A DNA stretch of 63,516 bases, the filler included, from Sphacelaria rigidula (taxonomy: Eukaryota): NCBI GenBank assembly GCA_964200075.2. It is 10 parts of 10 records of this genome, joined end to end, with 100 filler letters (N's around TTAATTAATTAA, not from the genome) between each part and the next. Parts side by side here need not be neighbours in the genome. Positions count along the whole stretch, not along the records: positions 57,256 to 63,516 come from CAXNAA020021167.1; 9 more parts are not named here. The stretch is one strand, 5' to 3'. Numbering within the stretch: the stretch's first letter is position 1; each line of letters starts with the position of its first letter. The notes beneath the pieces are model-generated. The model made no database searches. It saw nothing but the letters and a program-made list of their open reading frames with translations, and was not told where the DNA came from. The position numbers and the translations under genes were made by a program. Positions 10,300-63,516 of the stretch are shown one piece after another.

Positions 10300-10331
<32 letters not shown>

Positions 10332-10334
10332 ACG

Positions 10335-10646
10335 GGGGTGTACTCATGATCATGCCTCCCATAGCCATACGGCCATTGAGCTCGCATCCCTACAAAGCCG
10401 GGACGAAGCACGCCGGTTTTTCGCCGGACCCCGCTCGCACTCTATCTCCAAGCGTGAAGCGCCGTCGTGTGTTTGGCGAGTCGTATGAAGGGTGAGCTGC
10501 GTCCTGTTAAGGTTGTTCGGCCCGAAGCCTACTAATTGTCTTGCATTTGGATGACAGCCTCCAATAAGTTGCTTTATTATCTGGTATCGCTACTTCCAGA
10601 GACGGCCACGGCTTATACACTGCCTCATGGGTGTCTCACCATTTAA
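10335..10646 (-). mobile_element. Short non-coding retroposon, family A, with poly(C) tail (seen as the G tract at ~10173-10330)
   Basis: Homologous to 11401-11570, 37047-37227, 45467-45757, 57406-57465 and 59591-59648. The sense strand ends ...ATCATGAGTACA followed by C runs. Confidence 0.7.
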
Positions 10647-19086: not shown

Positions 19087-22000
19087 TCGGTCCTCCTGGC
19101 CTGACGTCCAACATGGGATTCCCGACACGCCCGAGACCAGCAGTGCACCTTTCTGGCCGGATCAGGGAGCTGCACGTTGACCTGTGGCAAGTGATGACTA
19201 CAAGGTGTGCTTTCGATAGATAGCAAATCTACTGACCAGGGGTCAACTCTCGACCCTCGTGCCCTGACGTCCGAGACCTGATCTCCGACACGAATAACAT
19301 CCAGCAGTGCACCCTTCCGGTCGGGACAGGGGCCAGAATATTGACCCGTGGCCAGTTGTTCCTACCGGGTGTTTGTTAATCAGAAAGCGGAAGTACTTGC
19401 CAGGGCTCACCTTTCGGTCCTCCTGGCCTGACGTCCAACATGGGATTCCCGACACGCCCGAGACCAGCAGTGCACCTTTCTGGCCGGATCAGGGAGCTGC
19501 ACGTTGACCTGTGGCAAGTGATGACTACAAGGTGTGCTTTTGATAGACAGCAAATCTACTGACCAGGGGTCAACTCTCGACCCTCGTGCCCTGACGTCCG
19601 AGACCTGATCTCCGACACGAATGACATCCAGCAGTGCACCCCTTTGGCCGAGACAGCGATCCGAATAACGAGCTGTGGTCAGTTGTTCGTACCGCTTGTA
19701 CCTTGGATAGAGAGCGGAAGTACTTGCCAGGGCTCAACTTTCGGCCCTCGTGCCCTGACGTCCAACATCGGATCCCCGACACGACCGAGACCAGCAGTGC
19801 GCCTTCCTCGCCGAATCAGATAGACACACGTTGACCTGTGGCAAGTGATCACTACGGAGTGTGCTTTCGATACGGAGCAGATCTACCGGCCAGGGGTAAA
19901 CTCTCGACCCTCGTGACCTGACATTCGAGACCTGATCTCCGACACGAATGACATCCAGCAGTGCACCCCTCTGGTCGGGACAGGGGCCAGAATATTGACC
20001 CGTGGCCAGTTGTTCCTACCGCGTGTTCGTTAATCAGAGAGCGGAAGTACTTGCCAGGGCTCACCTTTCGGTCCTCCTGGCCTGACGTCCAACATCGGAT
20101 CCCCGACACGACCGAGACCAGCAGTGCACCTTTCTGGCCGGATCAGGGAGCCGCACGTCGACCTGTGGCAAGTGATGACTACAAAGTGTGCTTTCGATAG
20201 GAAGCAAATCTACTGGCCAGTGTTTACCTCTCGACCCTCGTGCCCTGACGTCCGAGACCTGATCTCCGACACGAATGACATCCAGCAGTGCACCCCTCTG
20301 GCTGAGACAGCGACCCAAAATTTGACCTGAAGCCAGTTGTTCGTACCGGGTGTACGTTGAATAGAGAGCGGCAGTACTCGCCAGGGCTCCCTTTCCGGCC
20401 CTCCTGGCCTGACGTCTCATATCGCTTCCCCGACACGACCAAGGCCAGCGGTGCACCTTTATAGGCGGATCAGGTAGCCGCACGTTGACCTGTGGCAAGT
20501 GTTGACTACATAGTGTGCTTTTGTTAGGAAGAAGATCTACTGGACAAGGGTCAACTCTCGGCCCTCGTCCCCTGACCTCCAAGACCCGATCCCCGACACG
20601 AACGATTCTTGCCTCCCATTCGGCGGGGGACAGACAGACGGTTGTTGACCTGTGGCAAGTGATCATTACCATGTGTACCATTGATAGAAAATACTACTTG
20701 CTACCGGTCAATTCCCGATCCCCGTGCCGTGACGTCCGAGACCTGATCTCCGATACGAATGACATCCAGCAGTGCACCCCTCTGGTCCGGACAGGGGTCC
20801 GAATATCGACCTGTGGGCAGTTGTTCCTACCGGGTGTACCGTGGATAGAGAGCGGAAGTACTTGCCAGGGCTCACTTTTTGGTCCTCCTGCCATGACGTC
20901 CAACATGGGATCCCCGACACGACCGAGACCAGCAGTGCGCCTTCCTCGCCGGATCAGATAGACGCACGTTGACCTGTGGCAAGTGATCACCATGAAGTGT
21001 GCTTCCGATAGGGAGCAGATCTACTGGCCAGGGGTTACCTCTCGACCCTCGTGCCCTGACGTCCGAGACCTGATCTCCGACACGGATGACATCCAGCAGT
21101 GCACCCCTCTGGCTGGGACAGCGACCCAAAAAGTGACCTGTGGTCAGTTATTCCTACCGGGTGTACGTTGAGTACAGAGCAGAAGTACTTGCCAGGGCTC
21201 ACCTTCCGGCCCTCCTGGCCTGACGTTCAACATCGGATCCCCGACACGACCGAGACCAGCAGTGCGCCGCTCTCGCCGGATCAGGAAGCCGCACGTGACC
21301 TGTGGCAAGTGTTGACTACAAAGTGTGCTTTCGATAGGGAGCAGATCTACTGGCCAGGGGTCAACTCTCGACCCTCGTGCCCTGACGTCTGAGACCTGAT
21401 CTCCGACACGGATGACATCTAGCAGTGCACCCTTCCGGTCGGGACAGCGACCCGAATATTGACCTGTGGCCAGTTGTTCCTATTGTGTGTATGGTAAACA
21501 GAGAGCGGAAAGTACTTGCCGGGGCTCACCTTCCGGCCCTTCGCCCTGACGTCCAACATCGAATCCCCGACACGACCGAGACCAGCAGTGCGCCTTCCTC
21601 GCGGAATCAGATAGACGCACGTCAACCTGTGACAAGTGATGACTACAAAGTGCGCTTTCGATGGGAAGCAAATCTACTGGCCAGGGGTTACCTCCCGACC
21701 CTCGTGCCCTGACGTCCGAGACCTGATGTCCGACACGAATGACATCCAGCAGTGCACCCCTCTGGCTGGGACAGCGACCCAAAAGTTGACCTGTGGCCAG
21801 TTGTTCGTACCGGGTGTACGTTGAATAGAGAGCGGAAGTACTTGGCAGGGCTCACCTTCCGGCCCTCCTGGCCTGACGTCCAACATCGGATCACCGACAC
21901 GACCGAGACCAGCAGTGCGCCTCTCTCGCCAGATCAGATAGCCTCACGTTGACCTGTGACCAGTGATGACAACAAAGTGTGCTTCCGATAAAAAGCAAGT

Positions 22001-25000
22001 CTACTGGCCAGGGTTTACCTCTCGACCCTCGTGCCCTGACGTCTGAGACATGATCTCCGACACGGATGACATCTAGCAGTGCACCCCTCTGGCCAGAACA
22101 GCGACCTGAATATTGACCTGTGGCCAGTTGTTCGTACCGGGTGTACGTTGGATAGAGAGCAGAAGTACTTGCCAGGTCTCACCTTCCGGTCCTTCTGCCC
22201 TGACGTCCAACATCGGATCCCCGACACGACCGAGACCAGCAGTGCGCCTTCCTCGCCGGATCAGGAAGCCGCACGTGACCTGTGGCAAGTGTTGACTACA
22301 AAGTGTGCTTTCGATAGGGAGCAGATCTACTGGCCAGGGGTCAACTCTCGACCCTCGTGCCCTGTCGTCTGACACCTGATCTCCGACACGAATGCCATTC
22401 AGCAGTGCCCCGATTTGGTCGGGTCATGGGCCCGAATATGGACGTGTGGTCAGTTGTTCTCACCGGGTGTACGTTGAATAGAGAGCGGAAGTACTTGTCA
22501 GGTCTCACCTTCCGGCCCTCCTGCCCTGACGTCCAACATCGGATCCCCGGCACGACCGTGACCAGCCGTGCGCCTTCCTCGCCGGATCAGATAGACACAC
22601 GTTGACCTGTGGCAAGTGATGACTACGAAGTGTGCTTTCGATAGGAAGTAAATCTACCGGCCAGGGGTTACCTCTCGACCCTCGTGCCCTGACGTCCGAG
22701 ACCTGATGTCCAACGCGAATGGCATCCAGCAGTGCACCCCTCTGGCTGGGACAGCGACCCGAATATTGACCTGTGGTCAGCTGATCCTACCGCGTGTATG
22801 TTAAACAGAGAGCGGCCGTACTCGCCAGGGCTCACCTTTTGGTCCTTCTGGCCTGACGTCCAACATCGGATCCCCGACACGACCGAGACCAGCAGTGCAC
22901 CTTTCTGGCCGGATCGGGAAATCGCACGTCGACCTGTGGCAAGTGATGACTACAAAGTGTGTTCCCGATAGGGAGCAGATGTACTACACAGGGGTCAACT
23001 CTCGGCCCTCGTCCCCTGACCTCCAAGACCCGATCCCCGACACGAACGATTCTTGCCTCCCCTTCGGCGGGGGACAGACAGACGGTTGTTCACCTGTGGC
23101 AAGTGATAACTACCACGTGTACCATTGATAGAAAATACTACTTGCTACCGGTCAATTCCCGATCGTCGTGCCCTGACGTCCGAGACCTGATCTCCGACAC
23201 AAATGACATCCAGCAGTGCACCCCTCTGGCTGGGACAGGGGCCCGAATATCGACCTGTGGTCAGTTGTTTTTACCGAGTGTACAGTGGATAGAGAGCGGA
23301 AGTACTTGCCAGGGCTCACCTTCCGGCCCTCCTGCCCTGACGTCCCATATCGGATCCCTGACACGACCAAGACCAGCAGTGCACCTTTCTGGCCGGATCA
23401 GATAGCCGCACGTTGACCTGTGGCCAGTTGTTTCTACCGCGTGTACGTTGGATAGAGAGCGGAAGTACTTGCCAGGGCGCACCTTTCGGTCCTCCTGCCC
23501 TAATGTCCAACATCGGATCCCCGACACGACCGAGACCAGCAGTGCACCCCTCTGGCCGGGTCAGGGAGCCGCACGTTGACATATGGCAAGTGATTACTAC
23601 CAAGCGTACTTCTGATAGGGAGCAGATCTACTGGCCAGGGGTCAACTCTCGACCCTCGGGCTCTAGCCTCTAAGACCCGATACCTGACAGGAATGAGTCT
23701 TGCCTCCCCTTCGGCGGGGGACAGAAAGACGGTTGTTCACCTGTGGCAAGTGATAACTACCACGTGTACCATTGATAGAAAATACTACTTGCTACCGGTC
23801 AATTCCCGATCCTCGTGCCCTGACGTCCGAGACCTGATCTCCGACACAAATGACATCCAGCAGTGCACCCCTCTGGTCGGGACAGGGGCCCGAATATCGA
23901 CCTGTGGGCAGTTGTTTCTACCGAGTGTACCGTGGATAGAGAGCGGAAGTACTTGCCAGAGCTCACCTTCCGGCCCTCCTGCCATGACGTCCAACATGGG
24001 ATCCCCGACACGACCGAGACCAGCAGTGCGCCTTTCTCGCCGAATCAGAAAGCCGCCCGTTGACCTGTGGCAAGTGATCACTACAAAGTGTGCTTTCGAT
24101 AGGAAGCAAATCTACTGGCCAGGGGTCGACTCTAGACCCTCGTGCCCTGACGTCCGAGACCTGATCTCCGACACGAATGACATCCAACAGTGCACCCCTC
24201 TGGCTGGGATTGCGACCCGAATATTGACCTGTGGCCAGTTGTTCCTACCGCGTGTATGTTAAACAGAAAGCGGAAGTACTTGCCAGGGCTCACCTTCCGG
24301 TCCTCCTGACCTGACGTCCAACATGGGATCCCCGACACGACCGAGACCAGCAGTGCGCCTTCCTCGCCGAATCAGAAAGCCGCACGTTGACCTGTGGCAA
24401 GTGATGACAACAAAGTGTGCTTTTGATAGGATGCAAATCTACTGGCCAGGGTTCACCTCTCGACCCTCGTGCCCTGACGTCCGAGACCTGATCTCTGACA
24501 CCAATGGCATCCAGCGGTGCACCCCCCTGGCCGGAAAAGCGACCCGAATATCGACCTGTGGCCAGTTGTTCCTACCGAGTGTACGTTGGATAGAGAGCGG
24601 AAGTACTTGCCAGAGCTCACCTTTCGGGCCTCCTGCCCTGTCGTCCAACATCGGATCCCCGACACGACCGAGACCAGCAGTGCGCCTTCCTCGCCGGATC
24701 AGATAGACGCACGTTGACCTGTGGCAAGTGATCACTACAAGGTGTGCTTTCGATAGGAAGCAAATCTACTGGCCAGGGGTCAACTCTCGACCCTCTGGCT
24801 CTGACCTCCAAGACCCGATACCTGACAGGAATGATTCTTGTCTCCCCTTCGGCGGGGAACAGAAAGACGGTTGTTCACCTGTGACGAGTGATCACCTTCA
24901 CGTGTACCATTGATAGAAAATACTACTTGCTACCGGTCAATTCCCGACCCACGTGCCCTGACGTCCGAGACCTGATCTTCGACCCGAATGACATCCAGCA

Positions 25001-25348
25001 GTGCACCCCTCTGGTCGGGACAGGGGCCCGAATATCGACCTGTGGGCAGTTGTTCCTGCCGGGTGTACGTTGAATAGAGAGCGGGAAGTACTTGCCAGGG
25101 CTCACCTTTCGGTCCTCCTGCTCGATGTCCAACATGGGATCCCCGACACGACCGAGACCAGCAGTGCGCCTTCCTCGCCGGATCAGATAGACACACGTTG
25201 ACCTGTGGCAAGTGATCACTACGGAGTGTGCTTTCGATAGGGAGCAGATCTACCGGCCAGGGGTCACCTCTGGACCCTCGTGCCCTGACGTCCGAGACCT
25301 GATCTCCGACACGAATGGCATTGAGCAGTGCACCCCTCTGGCTGGGAC
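19087..25348. repeat. Satellite array of 163/164-bp monomers forming 327-bp A-B dimers, with occasional C monomers; fills the whole contig
   Basis: The anchor CTGACGTCC recurs at 19264, 19428, 19591 and onward (164+163 bp). A type gtccgagacctgatctccgacacg, B type gtccaacatcggatccccgacacg, C type cctccaagacccgat at ~20572, 23017, 23663 and 24801. Confidence 0.95.
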
Positions 25349-26826: not shown

Positions 26827-27348
26827 CGTGACGGTTTAAGAGACAACCAACTAGACTATTGATCAGGTAGCGCTGACTGGTCAGTAGTCTAGTTGGTTGT
26901 CCCTTGGAACGTTACAAAAGTTAGTCGTGGGATTGGTTCCCATCGAACGCACTTTTTTTGAAGAAAAAAGAGGAGAGAAAACCTCTGATGAAAAATTTGC
27001 CCCAAGGAGAGAAAACCTCTGTAAAAAGTTAGCCCAAAAGAAAACGGGTGGGATATAGCCTGGTGGCTATGTTTGGAGTGTACTGCTAAGGACCCCAGTG
27101 TACACACTCTGGAAATGAGTGGGGAAGACGAGTAACTCAAGGTTACGGTGAGAAGTGACAACACTAGATATCCTGATGGCAGTCGATAGAGCGCTGGCAA
27201 GGGGAGTCGTCCTCCTCGGAGCGAAAGTGACGGGGATCGAGCCCCCACGTCTAGCTTTTGTGACGGTTCAAGAGACAACCAACTAGACTACTGATCAGTC
27301 AGCGCTGACTGGTCAGTAGTCTAGTTGGTTGTCTCTTGAACCGTCACA
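26827..27348. mobile_element. 522-bp element bounded by two 90-bp palindromes (26827-26916 and 27259-27348) built from tRNA-like heads
   Basis: 27259-27348 is a 45+45-bp palindrome with one mismatch, centred on TCAGC|GCTGA. 26827-26916 is a more diverged copy. Reading inward each end gives an A-box-like TAGTCTAGTTGG. The B-box-like GGCTCGATCCC is clear on the right end and degenerate on the left. Confidence 0.8.
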
Positions 27349-27650
27349 CTTTACACCTGTCTTCGTCGCCGCTCCACACAGCCGTGGGGTCCTATAAACA
27401 CCCGCTGCACGCAGCTCAAGCAAGTCTCCAGTCTGGATCGACCACGGGCCAGCCGCCTTTGCAGCTACCTCAGCTTGAACCCTTCTCACGCGTCCGTGAA
27501 CCAATACGCCCAAAGCTGTCCAGACTCCTTTCTACCGAATAATTTCCAGCAGTCACTAACGATAGCACAACTAGCACGCCTAGCACTATCACTAATATCG
27601 GTATTGTGGCGCCAGCAGGTTGCTAGTACTGCAGCGTCTAATAATAATGC

Positions 27651-27865
27651 TGTTGAGGGACTCCCCAGTTCCACTGGCCTCAGGTTTCAGTTGTTCGCCT
27701 TCACAACACCTTTTATTATCCTCGAGTGCCACCCAGGCGGCTCCATAAACCACATCAGGGTATCACTCCTGTGTCCATGTCACCATCCATATCATCACTA
27801 CAGATTCCAAATCATCATCCAATCATCACTATATACTCAACGTGACGGCGTCATTTCGTCGCACA
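27651..27865 (-). mobile_element. Candidate LTR (215 bp) upstream of the gag-like ORF
   Basis: On the minus strand it has TGT...ACA termini with TATATA then AATAAA in order. No second copy and no clean PBS are visible. Confidence 0.4.
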
Positions 27866-28650
27866 TCGCACGGTGCAAACGGCCTCGTAGCGGACGAGAA
27901 ACGCGCCTGCTGCACAGTGACAAAAAATACCGCCAACCGGCTGGAGGTGGACATGAGCTACTGTGTCCAAGTCACGACTGGGACGTAGCTTATGTCCACC
28001 TCCAGCGATTGGAATACCTGTCCGCGCTCGTCACATGTGCCTTGCGCCGGCACCACAGCAGCTGCAATACACTCACACAGCCCGTAGCCACCATTCAAGC
28101 CATCGTACGGTGCAAACGGCCTTGTAGCGGACGAGAAACGCGCCTGCTACACAGTGCCAAAAAATACGGCCAGCCGACTGGAGGTGTACATAAGCTACCA
28201 TGTCCAAGTCGCGAGTTGGACATGGCTCATGTCCAACTCCAGCGAGTGGAATACCTGTCCGCGCTCGTCCCATGTGAGTTGTATCGACCCCATGGCAGCT
28301 GCAATACACTCACACGGTTCGTAGCCACCGTTCAAGCTATCGTGCGGTGCAAACGGACGAGAAACGCGCCTGCTACGCACAGTGCCAAAAAATACCGCCG
28401 CTCGACTGGAGTTGGATGTAAGCTATGTCCAAGTCGCGACTTGGCAACTTGGACATAGCTTACGTCCGACTCCAGCGAGTGGAACGCCTGCTCGTGCTCG
28501 TCCCATGTGCCTTTCATCGACACCACAGCAACTGCAATACACTCGCACATTCGGTAGCCACCGTGCAAGCCATCGTGGGGTGCAAACGGCCTCGTAGCGG
28601 ACGAGAAACGCGCCTGCTGCACACAGGACCAAAAACTACATCTGCACCGG
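27866..28650 (+). repeat. Tandem array of a ~237-bp repeat (~3.3 units)
   Basis: ggtgcaaacgg...gcggacgagaaacgcgcctgct recurs at ~27872, 28109, 28346 and 28579. Confidence 0.88.
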
Positions 28651-30460: not shown

Positions 30461-31710
30461 TGGGACGAGCGCGGACAGGTATTCCACTCGCTGGAGTTGG
30501 ACATAAGCTACGTGCAACTCGCGACTTGGACATGGTAGCTCATGTACACCTCCAGTCGGTTGGCGGTACTTTTTAGCACTGTGCAGCAGGCGCGTTTCTC
30601 GTCCGCTACAAGGCCGTTTACACCGTACGATGGCTTGAATGGTGGCTACGAACCGTGTGAGTGTATTGCAGCTGCTGTGGTGCCGGCGCAAGGCACATGT
30701 GACGAGCGCGGACAGGTATTCCAATCGCTGGAGGTGGACATGAGCTATGTCCAATTCGCGACTTGGACATGATAGCTTATGTCCACCTCCAGTCGGTTGG
30801 CGGTATTTTTTGTCACTGTGCAGCAGGCGCGTTTCTCGTCCGCTACGAGGCCGTTTGCACCGTGCGATAGCTTGAACGATAGCTACGGGCTGTGTGAGTG
30901 TATTCCGGGTGTTGTGGCGCCGATGCAAAGCACATGAGACGAGCGCGGGCGGGTAGTCAAAATCCCAGCTGGAGGTGGACATAACCATTTCCAAGTCGCG
31001 ACTTGGAAATAGCATCACCCTTTATTTTTTTCAAGCCCATTTTCGAGAACCCACTGTTCGTTATTTTACTTATGGTGAGATTATTACACCGTAGCATCAA
31101 AAGGCTGTAACCATTGGCATAATCGGCAAGAGCCTACTGGCCACGCATTTGTGGGATAATCCCATGAGATGTGTGCTGGTGAAGTACTCACCGCACACCG
31201 AAGCTGGTGTGCAGGGCGTATCATACCGCCCGTCTATTATGGGGAGACGGTGGGTGGGATTTCTCATAAAAAAGGGAGAAGATGAAGCCGATGTTATGAC
31301 GATCGAAATGACTGAGTTGAGAAGAAGTGAGAAACGGGGCGCGCCTCCTCCTAACGTCACAAAAACACATGAACTTCTCAACATAGAGGAAAGTGCCCTA
31401 TTAGGCCCAGTGCCCTATTAAGCACACTTCGGAGAAAACATTTACAAAATGACGCTCACTACATGGAACTCCTCTGTATCTCGTTCGCAACGGTGAGTCT
31501 ACATCTCCAGCTCTCGTTTGCGCTCTTCAGCGTGCCGATCGACCTCGTCACTGACGAGCTACGGCAGTCACAATCACTGGGTCTGGCCGTGTAGGCTGAT
31601 GTTGGTTTGGTGTCGATTGTGCTGCTAAGGACGGAGCAAAAGGTGACACGACACAACAACAAATTGTGCGAATTGAGGTTTAACTTCGAGATGAGGCTCA
31701 AGCCTAAAAC

Positions 31711-31810: not shown

Positions 31811-34280
31811 CATGCACCATCGGTCGTGTACAGCATGTTGCCGACTGCTGCAACAGCTTGCTTGGTTGCCGCTCGCCGCAGCCGCTTTCTCCTCTCAACT
31901 AGCGCCGATGCTACGAAAAAGCCAGCTGATGTCAAGCGTTGTTGTACCTCGTGCAACAGCAGCACACGAGCGATCTGTACTTTTCGTTTCTCGCGACGAA
32001 AGACAATTTGCGCGCACCCACCACTTCATTTTCTCTCACCCAGCGAACGTTTCTCTTTTGCGCCCAGCGATTCCGCACACAACCATGCATAATCGATCGT
32101 GTACAACATGGTGCCCACTGCGACGACACCTTGCTTGGTTATCGCTCGCCGTAGCCGTACAGTAGCTGCTTCTTCTGCTCAGCTAGCGCCGATGCCACGA
32201 ACAAGCCAACTGATGTCAAGCGCTGTTACACTGAGTGGAACAGCATCACACCACGATCTTTATACTCGTCGTTTGTCGCGACGAGAAACGACTCGCGCGC
32301 ACCGATCGCTTTCTTTTTTCTCGCCTTGCGATCGTTTCTCTTTTGCGCCCAGCGATCGTGCACACACCCATGCACCATCGATCGTGTACAGCATTCTGCC
32401 GACTGCGACAACACCCAGCTTGGTTATCGCTCGCCGTAGCCGCTGCTTTTCTCGGCTAGCGCCGTTGCTACCAGCAAGGTAGCTGATGTCAAGCGCTGTT
32501 GCACCGCGTGTAACAGCAGCACACGAGCGATCTGTGCTTGTCACTTCTAGCGACGAAAAACAGTTCGCGCGCACCGGTCGCTTCATTTTTTCTCGCCCGG
32601 CGATCGCTTCTCTTTTGCGCCCGCGAGTGCGCGCACACCCGTGCACCATCGATCGCGTACAGTATGTTGCCGACTGCTGCAACATCCAGCTTGGTTATCG
32701 CTTGCCGTAGCCGCTTCCTCTGCTCAGCTAGCGCTGATCCTATCAACGAGCTAGCTGATGTCAAGCGCTGATACACCGCGTGCAACAGCAGCACACGAGC
32801 GATCTGTACTTTTTGTTTCCAACGACGAGAAACAATTTGCGAGCATCGATCGTTTTGTTTTTTGCTCACCCAGCGATCGCTTCTCTTTCGCGCCCAGCGA
32901 TGGCGCACACACCCATGCACCATCGGTCGTGTACAGCATGTTGCCGACTGCTGCAACAGCTTGCTTGGTTGCCGCTCGCCGCAGCCGCTTTCTCCTCTCA
33001 ACTAGCGCCGATGCTACGAAAAAGCCAGCTGATGTCAAGCATTGTTACACCGAGTGCAACAGCAACACACGGGCGATCTGTATACTTCTCTTTTCTCGCG
33101 ACGGAAAACAAGTCGCGCGATCCCTTATTTTTTTCTCGCCCAGCAATCGCTTCTCTTTTGTGCCCAGCGATTGTGCACACACCCACGCACCATCGATCGT
33201 GTACAGCATGGTGCCGACTGCGACGACACCTTGCTTGGTTATCGCTCGCCGTAGCCGTCGCTGCTTCTTCTGCTCAGCCGGCGCCGATGCAACGAGTAAG
33301 CCAGCTGATGTCAAGCACGTTGCTGAGTGCAACGACAACGACGCGCGATCTGCACTTCTGGCGGAGAAAATTCGAACGCACGAGTCGCTTCTAGTAATAG
33401 TTTTGTCTCATAGTGATCGCTGTTGTTTTGCGCCCCGCGATTGCGCGCACACTCTTGCACAAAATCGATCGTGTACAGCATGGTGCCGACTGTGACAACA
33501 CCTTGTTAGGTAATCGTTCGTCGTAGCCACAATTCCTTTGCTGAGCTAGCGCCGATGCCATAAACAACCTAGCTGATGTCAAGCGCTGTTACCGAGTGCA
33601 ACAGAGCACACGAGCGATCGTCTGTACTTTCCGTTTCTCGCGACGAGATAAACTCCGCGCGCACCGCTCGCTTGAGTTTTTCTCGCCCAGCGATCGCTTC
33701 TATTTTGCGCCCACGGCGCGATTGCGCACACACCCATGCACCATCGATCGTGTACAGCATACTGCCGACTGCTGCCACACCCAGCTTGGTTACCGCTTAC
33801 CCTCGTCGCTTCCTCTGCTCAGCTAGCGCCAATGCCATAAACAAGCTAGCTTATGTCAAGTGCTGTTACACCGAGTGCAACAGGAGCACACGAGCAATCG
33901 TCTGCACTTTCGTTTCTTGCGACGGAAAACAATTTGCGCGCACCGATCGCTCACCACTCATTTTCTCCTCCAGCGATCGCCCGTTTTTTCGCCCAGCGAT
34001 TGCGCTCACACCCATGCATCATCGATCGTGTACAGCATGCTGCCAACTGCGACAAAACGTTGCTTGGTTACCGCTCGCCGTAGCCGCTTCTTTCGCTCGG
34101 CTGGCGCGTATGCAACGAAAAAGCGCGCTGATGTCAATAAGCGCTGCTACACTGAGTGCAACAGCAGCACACGGCTGATCTGTATACTCTTCGTTTATCG
34201 CGACGAAAAACAATTCGTGCGAACCGATCGCTTCGTTTTTGCGCCAAGCGATTGCGCGCACACACCTATGCACCATTGAT
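31811..34280. repeat. Satellite/tandem array of a ~275-bp unit (~9 diverged copies)
   Basis: The anchor CTGATGTCAA (CTTATGTCAA in one copy) occurs at 31926, 32210, 32483, 32755, 33029, 33305, 33573, 33850 and 34128, with spacings of 268-284 bp. Confidence 0.92.
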
Positions 34281-50894: not shown

Positions 50895-52004
50895 TGCTAT
50901 TCTGGTCTGTATTATTTGCTTGTTGTCTCCTTGTGTGAAAGCAACACGAGAGCGACTGTGGTCAGCCTGCGCTGCTGAGCTGAGTAAACAAACGACGTAC
51001 GCAGAGATCTGAACCTGGAACAATCTTGGTGAACACCATTACACCCAACCCAAGGCGCCTTCACGTCTATCACATCACAGTTGGAGCTCCCGCACTGCCT
51101 CTGCTGTACTTTTGATTTTAGTTGCGTTGTGTTCAGACTGCCGAGCTGCCGTGTACACTACACCACCACTGTGTGCCTCGCATGCGCGTCTCTTTTGTTT
51201 GTTCATCGTCTAGTCGTCTGTAGTTGTTGCTCTGTCCTCTGTCCCTGGCGCGATGAGTTCAAGAGCCTCTGATACACTTGACGCTCGCACCCTGCGCCGA
51301 CTCCGACGCGAACGTACGCGAGCAATAGCACTTGCCCCCCCACCATCCTCACCTTCTCATCCCAGCTGCCTATCTGTGGCAACTGCCCCAGTAATGATAC
51401 CCATCTACTCTGTAGCGGATGCGAGTCACCAGGTAGAGTCCAATTTATACCGTGACTCTCCTGCCCCATTCCATTTTTTTTCACATGAGCTGCCCGTACA
51501 TCATCAGATACCAACTCTTTTCTACCACCACCGGCACTGTATCAGCGTGCACCCTTTCGCTACACCCCCCCCACCGCATGTACCGCCGGCCCAGTAGCTA
51601 ATGTTGACCGTCTCTTGCTGTCTCAGAATATGCTCACCGTGCAGCACATTGTTTTTGTGCCCAGCCTGGATGTTGATTGTACATGACCCGACCCCACCCT
51701 GTACTATGTATATGAACCCAACATCCGTGATAACACTCCCGTGCCACCCTCTTCCCCAGGTCCTGTGTTCATCCAGTACATTTCGTGGACTCCGGTCTGG
51801 ACAACTCGTCCACACACTCTCTCTCATACCTTTTTAGATCGCCCCTCCCTGTCTTTCACGGGGGCCTGGCCGACCCCCATCACGCCCACAGCCTCCTACA
51901 ATAGATTATTTGCCTCTTCCAATTCCAATGCAACACCCCGGTCACCCATTACCCTCCTTCTTTCTACACTGCCTGTGACGCGCACCCGCGCAGGTACACA
52001 AGCA

Positions 52005-55000
52005 ATGTCTAATTCCCCGGCTTCGCTAGAGCTACGTGCCGATGAAGAAGGCGCATCCTCTCCCGAATCCGGTGAACCACGGCTTGCGTCGGACACAGTG
52101 TTGCATGATCCAGTCATTGAAAGTGTAGAGGATGATGATGATGCCCAATCTCAGTCGGGAGGAATTCCCCTCTCTACGGTGCCCGACGTACAGCCGGGAC
52201 TTGATTTCCCACTGTATGCCGCCACCGCTCAAACTCTTATCAGTGACACTAGACATGTCAACTCTACTGCTAGTGGTGCCCATCCGGTTCGTGATCATTC
52301 CCCGGCTGAGCCCTACGCTTCGGACGTCGTAGCCTCGACGAGTGATCGTGAGTCGGAAAAAAACCCGTCTACGCGCCTACCCAAGAAAGCACGACAAAGC
52401 TAAGACCCAGTTTAAACATAGCCGTCCCGCTGCTATTCTAGCCCACGCGTGGGACAAATTTTCCCGCGAGGAACAAGCCGCGTACTGGGACGACTTGTTG
52501 GCCCAGACCGTACAAGCGCAAGTAGAACGTAAGAACCGTGAAGCTTTCGAGAACGCTCAAGAAATCCAGCGCGTCCGTCGTGAGGTCGAAGCCAAACGCA
52601 AAGCCTTGGCGGAGGGGCAGAAGAAGGAAGCCCGCCTCCTCCGGCAAACCGCCAAGACTTTGCAGGCAGCTAAAGCCCAATATGAACAAGCTTTACAACA
52701 ACACAATACGACGGTAGAACAATCCACCTATCGCATTTCCGTCACTCAATCTTTACTCGACGAGCAGGTGAAACAGTTACGTCTGCTCACCCGCGATCCC
52801 ATCGACATTGAAACCGATTCTGATTACTCATCCACTGATTCACCTGCACTTTCCAACGCCACTCCGAATGTCGCCCCTCTAGCCACGGGACTACCTCCCA
52901 TGCCACCTGAGACGATCGCATCCGGCGTTTCAACCACGTTTGGTGTGCCCCTCCAATTTCACCGCGATAAAACGCCCCCTACATTTGCCCCCACAGCGAA
53001 CCACTCACTCTCCACTGAACCCACTCACCCAACCCTGGCTCCTAAGGCTACTCGTTCCGACGGACTTGATCTTTCTGGTGTAGAAACTTTGGCAGCTGTT
53101 CCCCTCTACGATTTTGTCCACGACCCCGACACCCTCCTTACCTACGCGTGTCAGGCGCAGCGCCTCACTGTTCCAGTCACTGACAATTCAATCACGATCC
53201 TCAATTGGTTTCCAAAACACACCGAGACCGTATCGTTAGCAGGTGTCGTTCAATGCATACGTTCCAACCCACGTTTCGAAATTAGTCTCGCGTTACGGCA
53301 TGAGTGCGTCGGGTCCCTCATCGGTCTATTCACGGAAATTGAGCACGTACGCATGACAGTACGCGGCCCTGCTGATGGTACGGACCGTTCATACCCTACT
53401 ACCACTGGTCACCTTCAGACAGGTCACGTAGGGCACAATTCAATGGACAGTGGCGGTAGTTTTACTGTTCAAGGGAAAGGGAAAAACCGCCTTAACGACA
53501 ATGGTAAATCTCACATTTCGCAGCAGTCACGATCTCGCCGTCATCGTCGCCCTTCATTTTACAGTGAGTCGGACAGCACAAACGGGTCTCATAATGACAC
53601 GAGTGCGGCCGCCTCACGTCCGACGCCCCTCACTTTGAGCGATTTCCTTCCGCTATCATGCACTGTCGCCAAACAGCGTCACTCTCAGATCAAAGTCAAA
53701 CAAGCGAAGGAAGCCACCAAACCTGCTCACAGCCGCGTACAGTTTGCCCCTTCGGCTCCCACCCCTCAACCCAGTGACCCTTCCCCCTCTTCCACGGACC
53801 GACAGGCACACATTCAGGTTGTACGCCACCAATACAAGAACTTGGACCCGAAATTTGTAGGCAAAGTCAATCCTTCACTACCCTTTCCTGCGGGATCTGA
53901 TGTAAGCCTTTCCTGCAGCCAGTTACGACAATCCCTCACTACTGTAGTTACTGATATCCTCTCACACTGCGACGACACATTCGTCGACCTTGAGACCAGT
54001 GATTGGGTAGATGGCTGGCTTCGACCTTTACAAAAGACTTCGGAGGATGCCATCGATTTCAGCTCTCCCAAGGCATCTAAATTGTCCAATATGCTTGACC
54101 ACCACTTCGCACAAGCCGCACATTCCCTCACTCTCGGTAATGGCGGTTACACCGCTTTCACCCTCCTCCTGAGACTCATCAGTTCATCCCTGGACACCAC
54201 CCACGAAGGCAAGTCACTCGAACGCCTACTATCGTTTAAGGTACCCGTCGACACCCCTTTTGACCACTACCTCAAGGAATTTCGCACTTTAATTTCGGTT
54301 ACGGTAAACGGTGGCAGCGGACATGTCCCATCACAAGAAATGGTGATGAGTCTTCTCCGTTCAAATATGGGACGCCAATACCCTAGCCTCATGCCAACCG
54401 CCTTTGTCAGTACCACAGCGACTTCACCGGTCCCGTTTCCAACCTTGGACGCTATGTGGACGAAATTAGATAAACTCCGGTCGAACCGCACTCCGGCATT
54501 AGATGTGACGGATGCAAAACAGAGTGGCTCCTCCGCAATTCACAACGGCCCTTCTGTACGACACAGTCACCATGCTTCCACCACCCTTTTGCCTCACCCG
54601 GTTGCCGCCCCCCCTGCGTCTCACTCCCAACCACCACCTTCTAAACCAAACCAACGCCCATGGATTCCTGCGTCTATGGCCTCCACTGGGGAGGTCATGT
54701 TCGCACACACACCCGACGCATTCAACAGTCGTTTTCCAAGCTGGCCCTTCGCGACGGAAATTTGGCCGGAAGTGTTTCAGGTAAGCACTTCGATGAACAC
54801 TACAGACCCCCCCCCTCTGGGCCAGTACCGAAGACCCTAACCTCCGATCAGATGTAATTCGCCGTTGCAAAGATCACTGCCTGAACTGTGGCATTTGGTT
54901 CAATCCCCAAACGGGGTACTCCGCAGATGGTCAAGTTCCCACGCACTCGATGCGCCACTGCGAAGCCCCGTTCACAAACGCATTTGGCGTCCTCAACCCC

Positions 55001-55423
55001 ATGTTCTCCGAGCCCCAGTTTGCGCACTTTTGGCCAACTTGGCAAGCACGTATGCGGTCTTACCGTCGCCCTCAACCCAGCGGCGCCCGCAATTCATACC
55101 AACGCCCCCGGCGCGGCAATCGCCACTCTATTGCTGACACTCGCGCCCCCCCTCAATACCAACATTCCTATTATCACGCTCAGCCGGCTAACGCGGCCCC
55201 GTCTCACGTAGCCCCCGCCCATTCTGGCGCGTTTCAACCGCCACACCAGACTCAATACTCAAGTACTCCTAGCCCCCCACGAACACATCTACTGCCCCAA
55301 ACACATCCCGTCAGAATGGGACCCACAACTCTACCGATACCAAACGTGCCACCTGACGGTGTTTGGGAAACGCGCAATACCCCGCGTTTCCACATCACCG
55401 ACGAGGTACCTCTACGTGTGTGA
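52005..55423 (+). pseudogene. Gag-like ORF (coiled coil, core, Cys/His knuckle) broken by two single-base homopolymer frameshifts
   Basis: The 832-aa ORF 52342-54840 joins the upstream ORF at A7 (52357-52363) and the downstream frame at C9 (54807-54815), giving DPPLW...CLNC-x18-H-x4-C. Confidence 0.65.
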
Positions 55424-56849
55424 CCGCTTGTAACACTTCGCCGTCACCCTCTTTATATTTTGAAGACACCTCTACTTCAAACCCCGTTGTCGACCATAGG
55501 TCCACGGTCGGGTCCCAGAAAACTTCAACAACAAACCCGCGGCGAAATATTTTCTTCCACTCAGCCAGTACACCCCCACCACTTGACAAAATCCTCGTCG
55601 GCCAGCGTGGGTTCTCGCTTGTGGTGTGGGTACGCTAGCGATGACCGTTCTGTCATGATGGGTTCCATGACAGAACAGTCCCGTGCAACATTGCATGACT
55701 CCCAAATGCGCGATGACCAACCCCAGTGTTTTCATACTGGATCTGATCACCCAGTTGTATTTCCGAGTGGTAGTAATCAATGCCAGATGGATCCGATCGC
55801 CCCGCGGAATCGGCAGTCATGTAGCGTAGCGGCTACCGCCTTAGAAGCAGGAACATCTTCTGATACGGTAGCTGTTACCCCTACGACAGTTTATCGTAGG
55901 ATGAAACGTTTACAGAGACTCCCCAGCCCCGAGAAGGACTCAGGAGTCCAGTCAAACCCGGTAACACATGCGTGCGAAATTCCTCGTGTGCCCGGCCCCC
56001 TTTTATTTGGTGAGCGTAATGTTTCGTGCACTACGCGCGCCAGTGCCGAACCCTTGCTTTCCGTAGCTCAGCGGGTTGGGAAGGAACCCCAAACGCCAGT
56101 GCCGACCGAACGCCACGCGTGTAGCCACGAACGGACTGACCTTGCCAACTTCCCAAAAGCTCCTGGAACAGCCGGCTCTAGAGTGCGCTATACGCGACAC
56201 CAGGAGAAGGCTCTTCCGGATGAAACTGTCAATAAACCTGTAGTTGCCGCTGCATCCGCCAACCAAGAAGGTGCCCGGGTGCCGGGCACAGCGGATGAAG
56301 GCCTTGTCGTAGAACAGGTCAGTGCTTCCGAGATCCCGAACAGATCAGCACCGCTTCCTGCCGACCCCTCGGAATCTATGTTGAAGAATAAAGTAGCGTT
56401 GACAATTGTTGGAACAATAAAACCGCTACGCCCTGCATGTATGTCTCATGGTCCCGGACAAACCCCGGCTGTGCCGTCCAAATTGCAGTCCGATCAGGAC
56501 TGTTTCTCCCCTGTTTCTCATAGCTCCAAACAAATATCGCAAACATCCACATCCACTTCCCTTCCTAGGCGTCGACCATCCCTGACTGTGAACGAAATCC
56601 AACTTTCGTCTACTGCACCACTCGCCATGCAAAACCCCCCGTGCCACGACGGCCCTTCGGAGAACACATTCGCTCCGGAGGACCAATCTCGAGTCTATTT
56701 TAGTACCATTGCTCAGCAACACAAGAACGATGTGGCTGCAGTTCACTTGTCGGAATACGGACCCGACTTGGTAAGTGGAACTGCACTCATGGATGACGCC
56801 CCCTTCACAACCCGAATAGGTATACATAGTGAAGTGCATGCAACACGCC

Positions 56850-57155
56850 CTTTGATGGCCGTTGCCCTGCCCGACACTGGCTCACCACAAACTTTCATCA
56901 CAGCCAGCTGCTAGCAACACATGATGAACGCTGGAGCAGCAGATAAACATTTCCTTTCTACTGTTCCGCCTCGTGTTTTTGGCGGGTTTGGTGCCTCCAC
57001 TCCCCTAACGGTTGATCAATCAGTACGACTCAGTGTGCAATTCTTTGATGACACAGGTCCCACTGCACGACTAGCTGTGTGGGCACTCATTGTGCCCGAT
57101 GGTTCCATGTCGGTTGATGTTCTCTTGGGACGTGATAGCTGGCTACGTTTTTCCA
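56850..57155 (+). pseudogene. Retropepsin-type aspartic protease with an in-frame stop
   Basis: LMAVALPDTGSPQTFITASC*QHM...VFGGFG...VDVLLGRDSW. The TAG at 56912-56914 probably derives from TGG. Confidence 0.85.
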
Positions 57156-59585: not shown

Positions 59586-61310
59586 ATCGTTGGGAGGGGG
59601 TGTACCCACGATCATGCATGCCATAGTCATCAGACAATCGACCATTGACCGGGGGGGTCAAAAGTATGACGAAGATAAACAAAGTGCATTAAATATTGAC
59701 CATCGGTGGAGGCCCACATCTCACGACTGTTGCATGCTATAAAAGTTACCCACGATGAAAAGAGAAGGACGCAACATTTCAAGACTGCCGCGCGCTTGGG
59801 CACAAAACAAAATCCCTCTCCGGGATCGCAGTTCTGGCCGTCTGTAGCAATCAGGGAGCGAGGGACCCGAGACCCAGCTCCCGGTGCACCTGCACTGACA
59901 TCTCCTCAAAAAATGAGTAAATATCTTCAAAACTTGCACACAAGTGGCTCACAGAAACTCAAATGATGAATGCGCGACGAGACCGAAACGTGATGATGGC
60001 ATGTGTGTGTGCGCGCGTCACACACACGTCATGCGCCAGCATGTTTCATACTTCAGTATGTGCGTGGACGTGAACTGGGGTGAGACAAATAAGTGAGAAA
60101 AATGAGGCAAGCCGCTTGCTGGCTTGTACCATCCTCGAAGAATGGCGATACTCCGGTAAAATAAATGAAAGATGGCCGTAGGGAACGGAGCATCTGTTCC
60201 TCACCAACATTCCCGGAAACATGCGGGAGGACGGAGGTCTCACCGCATTTGTGTGGGCGTGTTGTAAGACAAGGATCTTCTCTGGTCCTTGACTTGAAGC
60301 TTCAACTTTTTTCTTGCTTCTGCTACATTTTTGGAGGGAGGAGGGATGATAAAACGCTGTCCTAGGGATAGGGTACCCGCCCCAACATAATTCCGTCCCT
60401 AGGTTTCGGTTTGACCGTACGTGTAAAGGCGATCATGAGCTTTTCTCAAGCCTCATAAAAATGTGCACGTACCCCTACCCTTACCGCAACACCGTCCACA
60501 AAATGTATCCGTCTCCTCAGTGCGCGTCAACGCTCAACACGGAGTACACTTTTGACCTCCCTTGCCGGAGCATCACGGGATTCTGTCCGATTGAGCTTTC
60601 GAGTCTCGGGTACGCTTTGAGCTTTCGGGTCTCGGGTACGGTTATTGATGAAGCCACGGGTACGGGTAAATGTAGTCCCGAGTGCGGTCAGAATGTGTTT
60701 GGTGTGGAGGTGTGTCAACCATGAGTTATTGGCGATTATCGCGAAAACACGTACACGTCTCTTTCGTTCATGAGTGTACCGGTAACGATGATACGTCACT
60801 CAGGTTCGGTTGGATGTCCTTTCATGGCTCGAGCCGAACGCGCTCGCCATTGACTAGACCTACGACTAACTGGACTAGTAGAGAATTGGTCCACTCGGAG
60901 GCATCCATCCATTGGTCGATCGCTGAAAAAACAAGTCTCGTATTATGTTAGTATCGTATTACCTGACATACCGATCATACGCCATCCATCCGACAATTGT
61001 GCCTGCCGTCTTTATCGGGATTTTCGGAACAAGGAGAAAAGATAACCTAGGGATGAGACGTGAGGATATGAATACGGTTTTTTTCAGGACCCATATTGTT
61101 GGAGCCCTGACAAACACTACACGGTGAAAAGTAGGTTAAAAGTAGGGGAGAGATGGGCTCATCCCTCGCGACCATTAGACCACGGACTCGTCTCAAGGAA
61201 GGGGAGGGGTTCAAAGTGCGAAAAAAAAAACACACACACACACATGTCGTTTTACCCCTGGTAGCTGTCACATGTCCAAATTCGCCGCCGGATTCAGCCC
61301 ATGACACATA

Positions 61311-61430
61311 CTTCATCATATGGTGCTCGCCCAGGACATCTCGATGCATACCGTACAGTTTCAATACCGAGACATCAATGAAGCTGTCGGCGGGAAAGAA
61401 AATCTTCGCGTGCTCTTCCTCTACTTCCTC
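61311..61430 (-). CDS. Candidate internal exon of an unknown protein (possibly the same gene as 58189-58380)
   Basis: cag|..EVEEEHAKIFFPADSFIDVSVLKLYGMHRDVLGEHHMM AA|gtatgt. Confidence 0.4.
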
Positions 61431-61817
61431 TGTCCCAAACGTCAGCTCAACCGTGACGGATGCAGATCATACGCCCATCAATAGACGTGGTGGCGATGCT
61501 ATGGGTGGGTTCACAACAGAGACATGACGCGAACGATGCTCACCAGAAATAAAATGCATATAAATAAAGCAATTTTTCTACACAAGAAAATAGTTCAAAA
61601 TATACTCCATTTTTGACGCTTTGTAAGGTTCCCTTTTTTGGGAGTTTGAGGGCAGGACGCAGAAGACAACATAGTGAGGTAACAGCGCCACAGAGGGCGG
61701 GGGTGGTGGGAAGAGTGGGTGAAGGACGATAACGAGGGCGGCAAACCGGCTTGAAACTACAACCTATTTTAGTATCAAGCTTAAGTGACCCCGGGGAGGG
61801 CGGAAATATACATACGC

Positions 61818-61957
61818 AACAGCTAGACGGACTTCGGACATCAGGTTTTGCTTAGAAAGCCGATAACCACTGAGTAACTCAGTCAGCGCTAACTGAGTAT
61901 ATCGGTCGTCATCGGCTTTCTCAACAAAACCTGATGTCCGAAGTCCGTCTAGCTGTT
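61818..61957. repeat. 140-bp palindrome (70+70) centred on TCAGC|GCTAA with tRNA-like arms
   Basis: The outer 33 bp (aacagctagacggacttcggacatcaggttttg) pair perfectly and the inner part has mismatches. One arm reads GCTGACTGAGTTACTCAGTGG...GTCCGAAGTCC. Confidence 0.85.
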
Positions 61958-62094
61958 AACCCACGAACTTGGATTCCCCCCCAGGGTTGCGCAACCCCTG
62001 TAATCAACGCTGCTCACGTGCCCGGAACAACATCTATCGGAGTAAACAATCTGAATAACATCCATCACAAGTCCGCATGGAGGATTCTCGGCAT

Positions 62095-62200
62095 TTTCTT
62101 GACCGTGATCAATTCGTCGGGAAAATTGTGTCACGGGTGAGAATCAAACTCCGGACTTGAAATCTCGTTGATAACCACTGGGCTCATTAGTCAGCGCTGA
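62095..62200 (-). mobile_element. tRNA-like SINE head starting at TCAGCGCTGA
   Basis: Minus strand tcagcGCTGACTAATGAGCCCAGTGGTTATC...GGAGTTTGATTCTC gives A-box-like and B-box-like motifs. Confidence 0.5.
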
Positions 62201-63516
62201 TGTCATACGCTTATTTTCGGGTTTATCCAGTTTCTTCCAGCCGCTCGGGAGCATGGTGAAAGCGGATGTGGATCGGAACAACACAGGGGAAAAGAAGAAA
62301 AAACGCTGCAAGAAAAAAACGAGAACAAAAAAAATCCAAACGCGGTTAGGGAAGGGCTTGTGCGAATATGGTAAACCTAGCAAATGGGACAGAGGAAGTA
62401 CACGGTCAAGCAGAAGTCTACCCGTCTGCAAGTGTGAGCTCTTGAAACCAGAACGATGAAGAGTCACACCCGCACGCGACACGTGAGGATATACGGCAAG
62501 AACCACTCGTCACCGCTAGTTTTCTCATCTCAGGGGTGAGCTTGCGAAAATGGAAACGAGATGATGAGCATCCTTGACTGTTTTAATCCTGCTTTAGGGA
62601 ATAGCAGCGTTTGTCATTGGGGCAGGGTCACTATGCTCCGTGGCCACTTCTCTACTGACGGTACGGTACCGTCTGTTCAGACAGTGCCCTACCACCGCTA
62701 CACATCAATTGACTGTACGAATCAAGCTGCCTCATCGAGTGCTCGTAGCGCATAGAATTAGAGCAAGGATACTGAGCTAGCTCGCTGGGGACTCCTGCTG
62801 TCCAACTAGTGACGGTACGATGCTGTCTGTACAGACAGTGCTGGACGCCACTACATCTCATTCGGCTGTGCGAACGCAGCTGCCCCAGGGGGTGCTGACA
62901 GCGCTTCGAGCTGAAACAGGAGCACTAAACTAGCTTGGTGCGGGCTATTGCTGTCCTTCACACTGTACGGTATTGTCTATACAGACCGTGCCGTACGCCA
63001 CTACTGCGATGTTGCCTTGACACCCCTAGCTCCGTTTTTCTTTTTTTCCAAAAGTTCCCAACTAACGGCTTTTCAGGGATGACCTACAATTTCAAAGTGA
63101 GCCTTGGGGCTCAACTTTTCGAATATTTCATTCTTGAGTATCTCCTTTTTACACATCTCAGTATACGATGTTGTTCTGTTCCACCGTTTTCTGTTTCCCC
63201 TTCTCTTTATACAGCGAGTGTTTCAGTTTTGGTTCGTCTCGGGAAGGTACACCATGTGACAACGGTTGAGTCCCTGGGGGGTCGGTTAACCCTTAGACGA
63301 GGAGCGTCGCCTCCGAACAGTTAGTTGTACAGGCTGACAGTTCCGAGACATCCGGGGGTTTCCAGAGCTCGGGGGGGTGGTGTTGAGGGAGGGGGGGGTT
63401 GTACGCAGAGCACCGGAGAAGCTCACGGAGTCGACCATGTGTGTTTGGACGTTTCCCATGGAAAATTATGAGCCGTGCACGAGGCCCGAAAGGTGCGGGA
63501 TAACCATTCTGGCCAA

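Follow-up and report, generated by a model that had tools for sequence, protein, structure and literature searches.

The window analyzed here is a stretch of 63,516 nucleotides (nt) from Sphacelaria rigidula (assembly GCA_964200075.2), in which ten pieces of about 6.26 kb are joined by spacers of the form N44-TTAATTAATTAA-N44. Its GC content is about 50%, and it looks like repeat-rich, intron-rich eukaryotic DNA. Near its end, in the piece from CAXNAA020021167.1, a 140-nt palindrome lies at positions 61818 to 61957 and is followed by repeated DNA that leads to a second, minimal palindrome. The axis of the 140-nt palindrome has the sequence AGC^GCT (the caret marks an axis throughout), and from this axis, as from others in the window, run short units that we term heads, each with a motif resembling the A box of RNA polymerase III (Pol III) promoters. 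The features of the locus, some of them resembling a short interspersed element (SINE), are as follows.

61811 to 61817: CATACGC, left copy of a 7-nt direct repeat and candidate target-site duplication (the best direct repeat between the flanks of 61818 to 62200)
61818 to 61887, minus strand: left arm, a complete 70-nt tRNA-like head (repeat search, RNA fold, depth)
61885 to 61890: axis AGC^GCT at 61887/61888, with the shared core CAGTCAGC^GCT(A)ACTG
61888 to 61957, plus strand: right arm, head of a plus-strand SINE-like copy (repeat search, contigs of public runs)
61958 to 62067, plus strand: repeated module that forms the body of the plus-strand copy (depth in run contigs)
62068 to 62160, plus strand: imperfect 93-nt hairpin that closes the repeated body and contains a constant 3′ module, 62121 to 62145 (self inverted alignment)
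62161 to 62195, minus strand: third head, GCTGACTAATGAGCCCAGTGGTTATC..., antisense to the adjoining body (29 nt at 79% to the left arm; head pattern)
62191 to 62200: second axis, TCAGCGCTGA (62195/62196), with a mirror of 5 nt only, 308 nt from the first axis
62196 to 62203: GCTGATGT, between the second axis and the right direct repeat
62204 to 62210: CATACGC, right copy of the 7-nt direct repeat (direct-repeat search of the flanks)

A repeat search placed the arms of the large palindrome where the original prediction, made from the sequence alone, had put them: 61818 to 61887 and 61888 to 61957, 70 nt each, 87% complementary and with 0 nt between them. As single-stranded DNA the palindrome folds at −59 kcal/mol (z = −16), and 0 of 200 shuffles fold as well. 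A longer pairing, to about 108 nt through a C-run/G-run on both sides, was rejected as low-complexity similarity, the sequence on the left being single copy. On the minus strand the left arm holds GCTGACTGAG, an A-box-like TTACTCAGTGG, a B-box-like GTCCGAAGTCC and GTCTAGC, which pairs with the 5′ GCTGAC; in an RNA fold the ends of the 72-nt unit at 61887(−) close to an acceptor-like stem (5′ GCTGAC with 3′ GTC.AGC). The A-box-like motif of the right arm carries four private changes, at 61901, 61904, 61907 and 61910, where other copies have C, A, G and T in 66 to 95% of the depth. The palindrome is two units joined exactly 5′ end to 5′ end, and the palindromic form of the axis motif arises from the abutting of the two unit 5′ ends. 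Arm length had been treated as a simple variable of about 5, 45 or 70 nt; this does not describe the arrangement, as the 70-nt arms are entire tRNA-like units and other copies pair heads of different subfamilies.

The same axis recurs in the fifth piece of the window, where two palindromes were found:

26828 to 26916: older palindrome, axis 26871/26872, arms identical at 35 of 45 positions (BLAST; fold −26.4 kcal/mol, z = −8.7)
27259 to 27348: young palindrome, axis 27303/27304, arms identical at 44 of 45 positions (BLAST; fold −50.2 kcal/mol, z = −18)

The older of the two was absent from the original prediction; its right side extends to a full-length head (about 85 nt, with T7 at the end), as does the left side of the younger one (about 82 nt, with a B-box-like GGCTCGATCCC). 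Because the window consists of ten joined pieces, the palindrome at 27259 and that at 61818 to 61957 are on separate pieces. When the palindrome pieces were compared by BLAST only a 17-nt center was in common, which agrees with the claim that the arms are unlike outside the center; BLAST of the region against the window gave no further copy. The three axes share the context CAG(T/G)(C/T)AGC^GCT(G/A)ACTG. TCAGCGCTGA occurs twice in the window (27299 and 62191) against 0.03 expected, a count reached in 0 of 100 shuffles, and CAGTCAGCGCT is found at 26869(−), 27296(+), 27301(−) and 61880(+). All three spacerless palindromes of the window that score at least 16 have an AGC^GCT axis, while each of 20 shuffles yielded 0. 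These shuffle tests, of TCAGCGCTGA and of the palindrome axes, bear out the claim that an axis motif is common to several subfamilies beyond chance. Its description as a conserved cis element holds in so far as the motif is shared among subfamilies; a role in recognition by a mobilizing enzyme would go beyond what is seen, a common 5′ end of the units. Four axes in the window bear heads, which stand head to head at three of them; these axes are confined to two of the ten pieces, at spacings of 308 and 432 nt.

Outward from each axis the heads begin with GCTGACT, apart from one GCTAACT and one GCTACCT. In Pol III promoters of this kind the A box (TRGCNNAGTGG) and the B box (GGTTCGANNCC) lie about 30 to 60 nt apart near the 5′ end, and transcription usually starts 10 to 14 nt upstream of the A box. 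In 10 of 10 aligned heads an A-box-like motif sets in 10 to 14 nt from the axis, with 0 to 2 mismatches to the consensus; it reads GTAGTCTAGTTGG in the fifth piece, TTACTCAGTGG at 61887(−) and GAGCCCAGTGG at 62195(−). B-box-like motifs are GGCTCGATCCC at 27303(−) and GTCCGAAGTCC at 61887(−). The predicted A- and B-box-like motifs of the palindrome are present, the former conserved across all heads and the latter in the left arm. A head pattern matched the window six times, five of them at the four axes, against 0 to 1 match in 30 shuffles. At the level of motifs, the heads have the internal Pol III promoter, A plus B box, of a tRNA-derived SINE.

The third head, as predicted, is real, with its axis at 62195/62196 and a minimal mirror, but it is a minus-strand head that points back at the palindrome. 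Only 62161 to 62195 is securely head; the supposed B box, GAGTTTGATTCTC (62139 to 62151), falls within a hairpin module that other copies have without that head. The hairpin at 62068 to 62160 folds at −18.3 kcal/mol (z = −3.7). Random flank pairs reach a direct repeat of 7 nt, as CATACGC around 61818 to 62203, in about 1.9% of trials, a figure uncorrected for the seven boundary pairs tried; of the other six pairs, four gave no repeat of at least 5 nt and two gave chance-level 5-mers (p of about 0.30).

Contigs of public sequencing runs, aligned to 61300 to 62700 at 80% likeness, showed that the locus is repeated. Three runs are DNA-like and come from two studies (X1 and X3 from one, X4 from the other); a further run, X6, may be RNA and covers 61911 to 62145 but not the axis. 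Among the public runs listed as containing the stretch, one bears the label "algae metagenome" and none is given as RNA. In X1 the flanks are single copy, with depths of 64.6 left of 61817, where the single-copy left flank ends, and 69.8 right of 62240. Between them the depth is 294 (61817 to 61863), 2236.9 (61864 to 61910) and 1358 to 1535 (61911 to 62051), followed by bins of 505 and 886 and by 344 (62146 to 62192); X3 and X4 have a profile of the same shape. Depth thus rises at 61817, reaches about 35 times that of the flanks at the axis and is back at flank level near 62196, and, because this step stands between single-copy flanks, the whole of 61818 to 62195 is repeated DNA, with the axis as its most repeated part. 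The body stands at about 21 to 23 times flank depth to 62051 and at about 8 times over 62052 to 62098, and 62146 to 62192, which takes in most of the third head, at about 5 times. A depth of 5 to 35 times the flanks over 61817 to 62192, with 69 to 76 contigs aligned per DNA run, is that of a dispersed repeat, and the expectation that the sequences adjoining the axis form repeat families is upheld. The share of contigs that continue into unlike sequence is 0.41 to 0.49.

The copies differ in their parts. Position 61891 is A here and G in 86% of the X1 depth of other copies (2625.6 of 3045.3, 16 contigs), from which we take GCTGACT as the family consensus. Pieces of other contigs lie over the body at 61914 to 62050, 61921 to 62133, 61924 to 62106 and 61927 to 62157, and copies that match it from 61914 on are preceded by other heads (..AGCGCAGACTGAG TAGCTTAGTGG..), the loose ends before 61914 reading ..AGCGC(A)GACTG followed by TAGCTTAGTGG or TAGCCTAGTGG. 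Alignments that cross the axis stop 9 to 11 nt beyond it; 8 contigs in each of X1, X3 and X4 then continue into a head with an A box that belongs to another subfamily, and loose ends with second heads begin behind 61896 and 61898. With such heads in 8 contigs per run, second heads across the axis must be common and the two sides often different. Six skip joints (9 contig records, three runs), as well as opposite-strand joints at 61817/61819, all rejoin at 62121 to 62131. After 62145, four contig records (one in X1, two in X3, one in X6) run into a stem-loop, GAGCTACTTCTC..AAAAAAA, with an A-run of A7 to A12, and three X4 contigs extend to 62160. A 5′-truncated copy directly behind the 3′ module (joint 62142>61938) is present in one contig each of X1, X3 and X4. 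A modular build of head, body and tail such as this is characteristic of a SINE-like retroposon family. The palindrome locus itself is found in runs of both studies, with 0 to 2 differences over the palindrome, and a 134-nt contig identical to the palindrome occurs in X1 and in X4.

Head-to-head junctions were also found in other collections, scanned with a one-sided pattern: TCAGC, GCTGACTG and an A-box core. One of 21 metagenome loci (L019) is real and 20 are chance; in a prokaryote genome collection one of 18 (L052, also L075) is real and 17 are chance. In a viral collection, 12 loci matching a 16-mer and 11 matching the head pattern included none with a second head or longer arms and were rejected as chance. 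The L019 contig starts 23 nt left of the axis, has perfect 23-nt arms and carries the canonical A box TAGCTCAGTGG. L052 lies on a eukaryote-like contig of 3474 nt (G001:C175; 48% GC, no bacterial features seen) that was binned in a bacterial metagenome-assembled genome, probably through contamination of the bin by host or alga. Two different heads meet there at an AGC^GCT axis, each with an A-box-like motif and with TTTCGAAC shared; one (L052-R) has the perfect A box TAGCTCAGTGG and the other (L052-L) the B-box-like GGGCTCGATCTCC. Both loci are head to head, although the pattern asked for one side only. In the remainder of G001, two patterns and one DNA search gave no further head; a second motif match, on contig C256, has no A box and was discarded. 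As a separate observation, the aligned arms of the mir-3473 model at 3 to 44 of L019 contain GGCUCAG, which resembles the A-box region of a SINE; mir-3473 may itself be built from inverted rodent SINE heads.

We suggest, with a probability of roughly 0.45, that the block 61818 to 62203 belongs to a dispersed superfamily of tRNA-derived, Pol III-type, SINE-like elements whose self-complementary 5′ end allows cDNAs to be joined in pairs, head to head, when they insert. The assignment to a SINE-like family is fairly secure: the copies form a repeat family with a common 5′ end, head-to-head pairs recur, and some copies have A-rich ends. How the pairs are joined is inferred, as are transcription by Pol III, the position of the RNA start and dual priming. 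A unit would consist of GCTGACT, an A-box-like motif, often a B-box-like motif, one of several differing bodies and, in some members, a stem-loop and an A-run end. Because the axis sits at the expected Pol III start and the lone head at 62195 has retained precisely TCAGC in front of its axis, as expected for a start at −5, we propose that the RNA may begin about 5 nt before the axis. Its 5′ end would then be the self-complementary decamer UCAGCGCUGA (TCAGC^GCTGA). Integration might involve twin or dual priming, in which each of the two target strands starts cDNA synthesis, with either a shared or a separate SINE RNA as template; the cDNAs could then anneal by their 3′ ends (...TCAGCGCTGA) through the decamer, and fill-in would fix the axis to the nucleotide. 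One side may often be primed internally, which would leave a short arm without a tail, and the outer ends of the short arms are indeed free of A and T runs. Pair-forming insertion of this kind would account for the base-exact axis, the pairs of different subfamilies, the short tailless arms and the spread to unique loci. A twin-priming architecture fits at three axes, with the inner joint inside the 10-nt self-complementary motif, but a target duplication is seen just once and then takes in the third head too. It is more doubtful whether dual target-primed reverse transcription is the normal, perhaps obligatory, mode of integration, such that nearly every insertion would be an exact dimer and the decamer a selected cis element.

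Several observations weigh against this interpretation. The two full heads of the fifth piece face each other as a 104-nt inverted repeat of 88%, with their palindromes 432 nt apart, and the arms of both palindromes end alike at the 45th base and have the A/G asymmetry at ±9 in common, which looks inherited rather than made anew at each insertion. An antisense head comes after the 3′ module both here (62161 to 62195) and in an X4 contig, where a different head follows 62160; such inward-facing heads at both ends are not predicted by simple dual priming. The A-run ends come from four contig records, and the copy in the window has the antisense head in their place. The one candidate target-site duplication surrounds the entire block at 61818 to 62203, and thus encloses the third head as well as the head pair; the whole locus of the fifth piece has no flanking repeat of at least 5 nt, and one of its palindromes has a chance-level 5-mer. 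T4 runs inside the units (e.g., 62093 to 62096) would stop Pol III in many organisms. The tRNA model RF00005 gave no match at E values up to 10 in scans of 621, 801, 96 and 130 nt, and ARAGORN found 0 tRNA genes in the window, L075 and L019. Old SINE heads are often missed by tRNA models; since the heads match neither search, however, "tRNA-derived" is a statement at the level of motifs. As a distinct candidate, a rolling-hairpin concatemer was rejected, the DNA between the facing heads not being palindromic about its midpoint.

The main rival, which we regard as unlikely, is an element that moves as DNA, such as a miniature inverted-repeat transposable element (MITE), a foldback element or a hairpin-ended element. 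The heads would be inward-facing terminal inverted repeats with termini at the axes, and the outer arms would be palindromic extensions left when a hairpin opens off-center or when termini are resolved at a fixed distance. The two loci show the expected form, an arm, two heads that face each other and a further arm: a 45-nt arm, the two facing heads and a 45-nt arm in the fifth piece, and a 70-nt arm, head, body, antisense head and 5 to 8 nt at 61818, where the 7-nt direct repeat surrounds the whole block. The body followed by an antisense head is met again in the X4 contig, and equal 45-nt arms in two palindromes would fit a fixed cut site. The outer ends, however, are neither conserved nor mutually inverted (AACAGCTAG... 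versus ...GCGCTGATGT), the lack of a flanking repeat of at least 5 nt around the whole locus of the fifth piece counts here too, and pairs of different heads, as in L052 and the loose ends, could not come from one unfolded hairpin. A-run ends and the 5′-truncated copy behind the 3′ module fit reverse transcription better. No eukaryotic transposase family is known to leave palindromic extensions of 45 to 70 nt.

Somewhat less probable still is integration targeted to Pol III genes, by which new copies would land nose to nose on resident heads, in opposite orientation, with the decamer as a by-product. The axis lies 10 to 14 nt upstream of the A-box-like motif in all heads, pairs of different heads exist, and the heads cluster (four axes in two of ten pieces, 308 and 432 nt apart), all of which such targeting would explain; Ty3, Dictyostelium TRE5 and NLTR-A offer precedents (PMC5911963). 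But targeting to heads cannot seed new loci, and both loci have single-copy or unrelated flanks. Tailless arms of 45 and of 5 to 8 nt do not represent entire insertions, it would be unusual for target-primed 5′ joining to give base-exact junctions in every pair seen, and the TCAGC kept by the lone head requires that the RNA itself carry TCAGC.

It is very improbable that these are functional small-RNA loci, either divergent pairs of Pol III genes with a palindromic start region or hairpins processed to small RNAs. In favor are the high stability of the hairpins, the preservation of the locus in runs of both studies (0 to 2 differences over the palindrome) and matches to covariance models of microRNA (miRNA) families; the matches, however, are far below gathering scores (mir-315, 27.1 versus 63; MIR2619, 35.2 versus 113; mir-3473, in L019, 37.7 versus 71.8), so that the sequences do not belong to those families, and a long hairpin of any kind would produce such matches. 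The right arm has a decayed A-box-like motif, the arms are only 87% complementary, and the copies are many and diverged, like neutral repeats. Finally, a fold-back chimera of assembly or library, or ligation at a blunt AGC^GCT cut, is conceivable in that AGCGCT is a blunt-cutter site and palindromes break de Bruijn graphs (the 134-nt contig of X1 and X4 is the palindrome itself), but is so improbable as to be negligible, with the palindrome in runs of two studies, arms diverged (87%) and not identical, and the AGC^GCT head-to-head junction in two unrelated public assemblies (L019 and L052).

The remainder of the window provides the setting of these loci. Tandem repeats come after the heads in three of three loci (tandem-like in L019), in a genome where such repeats abound in any case. 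At 62658 to 63004, some 460 nt away from the third head, a degenerate unit of about 150 nt is present three times, each time with a GTCTGT(A/T)CAGAC mini-palindrome. In the fifth piece, 237-nt tandem repeats at 27864 to 28639 and 30464 to 31007 (3.3 and 2.3 copies) stand in opposite orientation about 1.8 kb apart, each unit containing a small palindrome, ATGTCCAAGTCG^CGACTTGGACAT; a 372-amino-acid (aa) open frame at 27340 to 28458 is an effect of these repeats. An entire piece, 19087 to 25342, is satellite with a period of 163/327 nt (about 38 or 19 copies, 65 to 77% matches), and a satellite of 272-nt period fills 31811 to 34240 (8.8 copies). G runs of 27 and 72 around a gap of 6 N at 10173 to 10338 may be a homopolymer that is difficult to assemble. 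Protein searches covered 12 open reading frames (ORFs) and 117 of the 197 stop-to-stop ORFs of at least 90 aa; among these the sole Pfam match was NAD_binding_1, in an exon-like frame at 658 to 1059 (−) (E = 1.2e-7), and no reverse-transcriptase domain was found. Four consecutive long open frames at 51687 to 56914 (+), of 238, 835, 208 and 496 aa, have no Pfam match, and a protein-atlas look-up of the 835-aa frame gave no hit of at least 0.85; they may belong to a mobile element that has diverged or to a gene that evolves fast. Rfam gave no match at gathering score anywhere in the window. A dinoflagellate spliced-leader motif had 0 matches.

How the 5′ end of a target-primed retroposon joins the chromosome is poorly understood. 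If our interpretation is correct, a family with a self-complementary 5′ terminus would be a natural system for the study of second-strand priming and template joining. Head-to-head dimers would seed the genome with many stable hairpins of 90 to 140 nt, which could break replication forks or assemblies, as in the 134-nt contigs, or feed small-RNA pathways. TCAGC^GCTGACT together with the A-box-like motif is also a simple handle for annotating this class of repeat in a poorly known eukaryote. A word search of the literature listed no account of a SINE family that exists mostly as exact 5′-to-5′ dimers with a self-complementary 5′ terminus, which is weak evidence of absence.

Among known systems, integrations upstream of Pol III genes share with these loci a fixed short distance to a gene with A and B boxes. 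According to PMC5911963, Ty3 integrates at the Pol III start site, TRE5 inserts 44 to 54 bp upstream of tRNA genes in the orientation opposite to the gene, and NLTR-A inserts 2 to 6 bp upstream. These elements (Ty3, TRE5-A and NLTR-A) are autonomous and lie beside true tRNA genes, whereas the present loci join one SINE-like head to another with base-level precision and have no recognizable tRNA genes. MITEs and foldback elements have in common with our loci a small size, inverted repeats, strong hairpin potential and similar ends that face inward. They differ in that the conserved motif of the present loci stands at the centers of palindromes and not at outer termini, the sequences at 61818... 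and ...62203 being unrelated, and in the A-run ends of some copies; in place of a target duplication of constant length there is one of 7 nt at one locus and no repeat of at least 5 nt around the other whole locus.

Penelope-like elements likewise make inverted partner copies at insertion, in complex tandem and inverted arrays, which suggests that both target strands can prime. Their inverted partners, however, are 5′ truncated and have no fixed axis, unlike the axis described here. Neither a Penelope-type reverse transcriptase nor a GIY-YIG domain was found in the window ORFs scanned (12, and 117 of 197 of at least 90 aa), and no hammerhead ribozyme matched at Rfam gathering scores in the window. 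In L1 twin priming the segments derive from separate regions of the RNA and their meeting point varies, so that no palindrome forms. Twin priming and 5′-inverted L1 insertions are the subject of PMC2837659 and PMC2912911. The likeness is that an inverted segment stands upstream of a sense copy after one insertion event and that the inverted part is internally primed and tailless; here, by contrast, both sides reach the 5′ end, meet at one fixed axis and can be different elements.

The closest comparison is with tRNA-derived SINEs, such as rodent B2 and salmonid HpaI and SmaI, which have a type 2 internal Pol III promoter and depend on long interspersed elements. The present copies differ from these in being, as a rule, joined 5′ to 5′ with a second head, in a 5′ end that is a self-complementary decamer, in the antisense head that can come after the 3′ module and in heads without a match to the tRNA covariance model. 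They resemble them in a short head whose A- and B-box-like motifs lie near +10 and +50, in head-body-tail modules with many subfamilies that share a head and are dispersed between unique flanks and, in some members, in A-rich ends and 5′-truncated copies.

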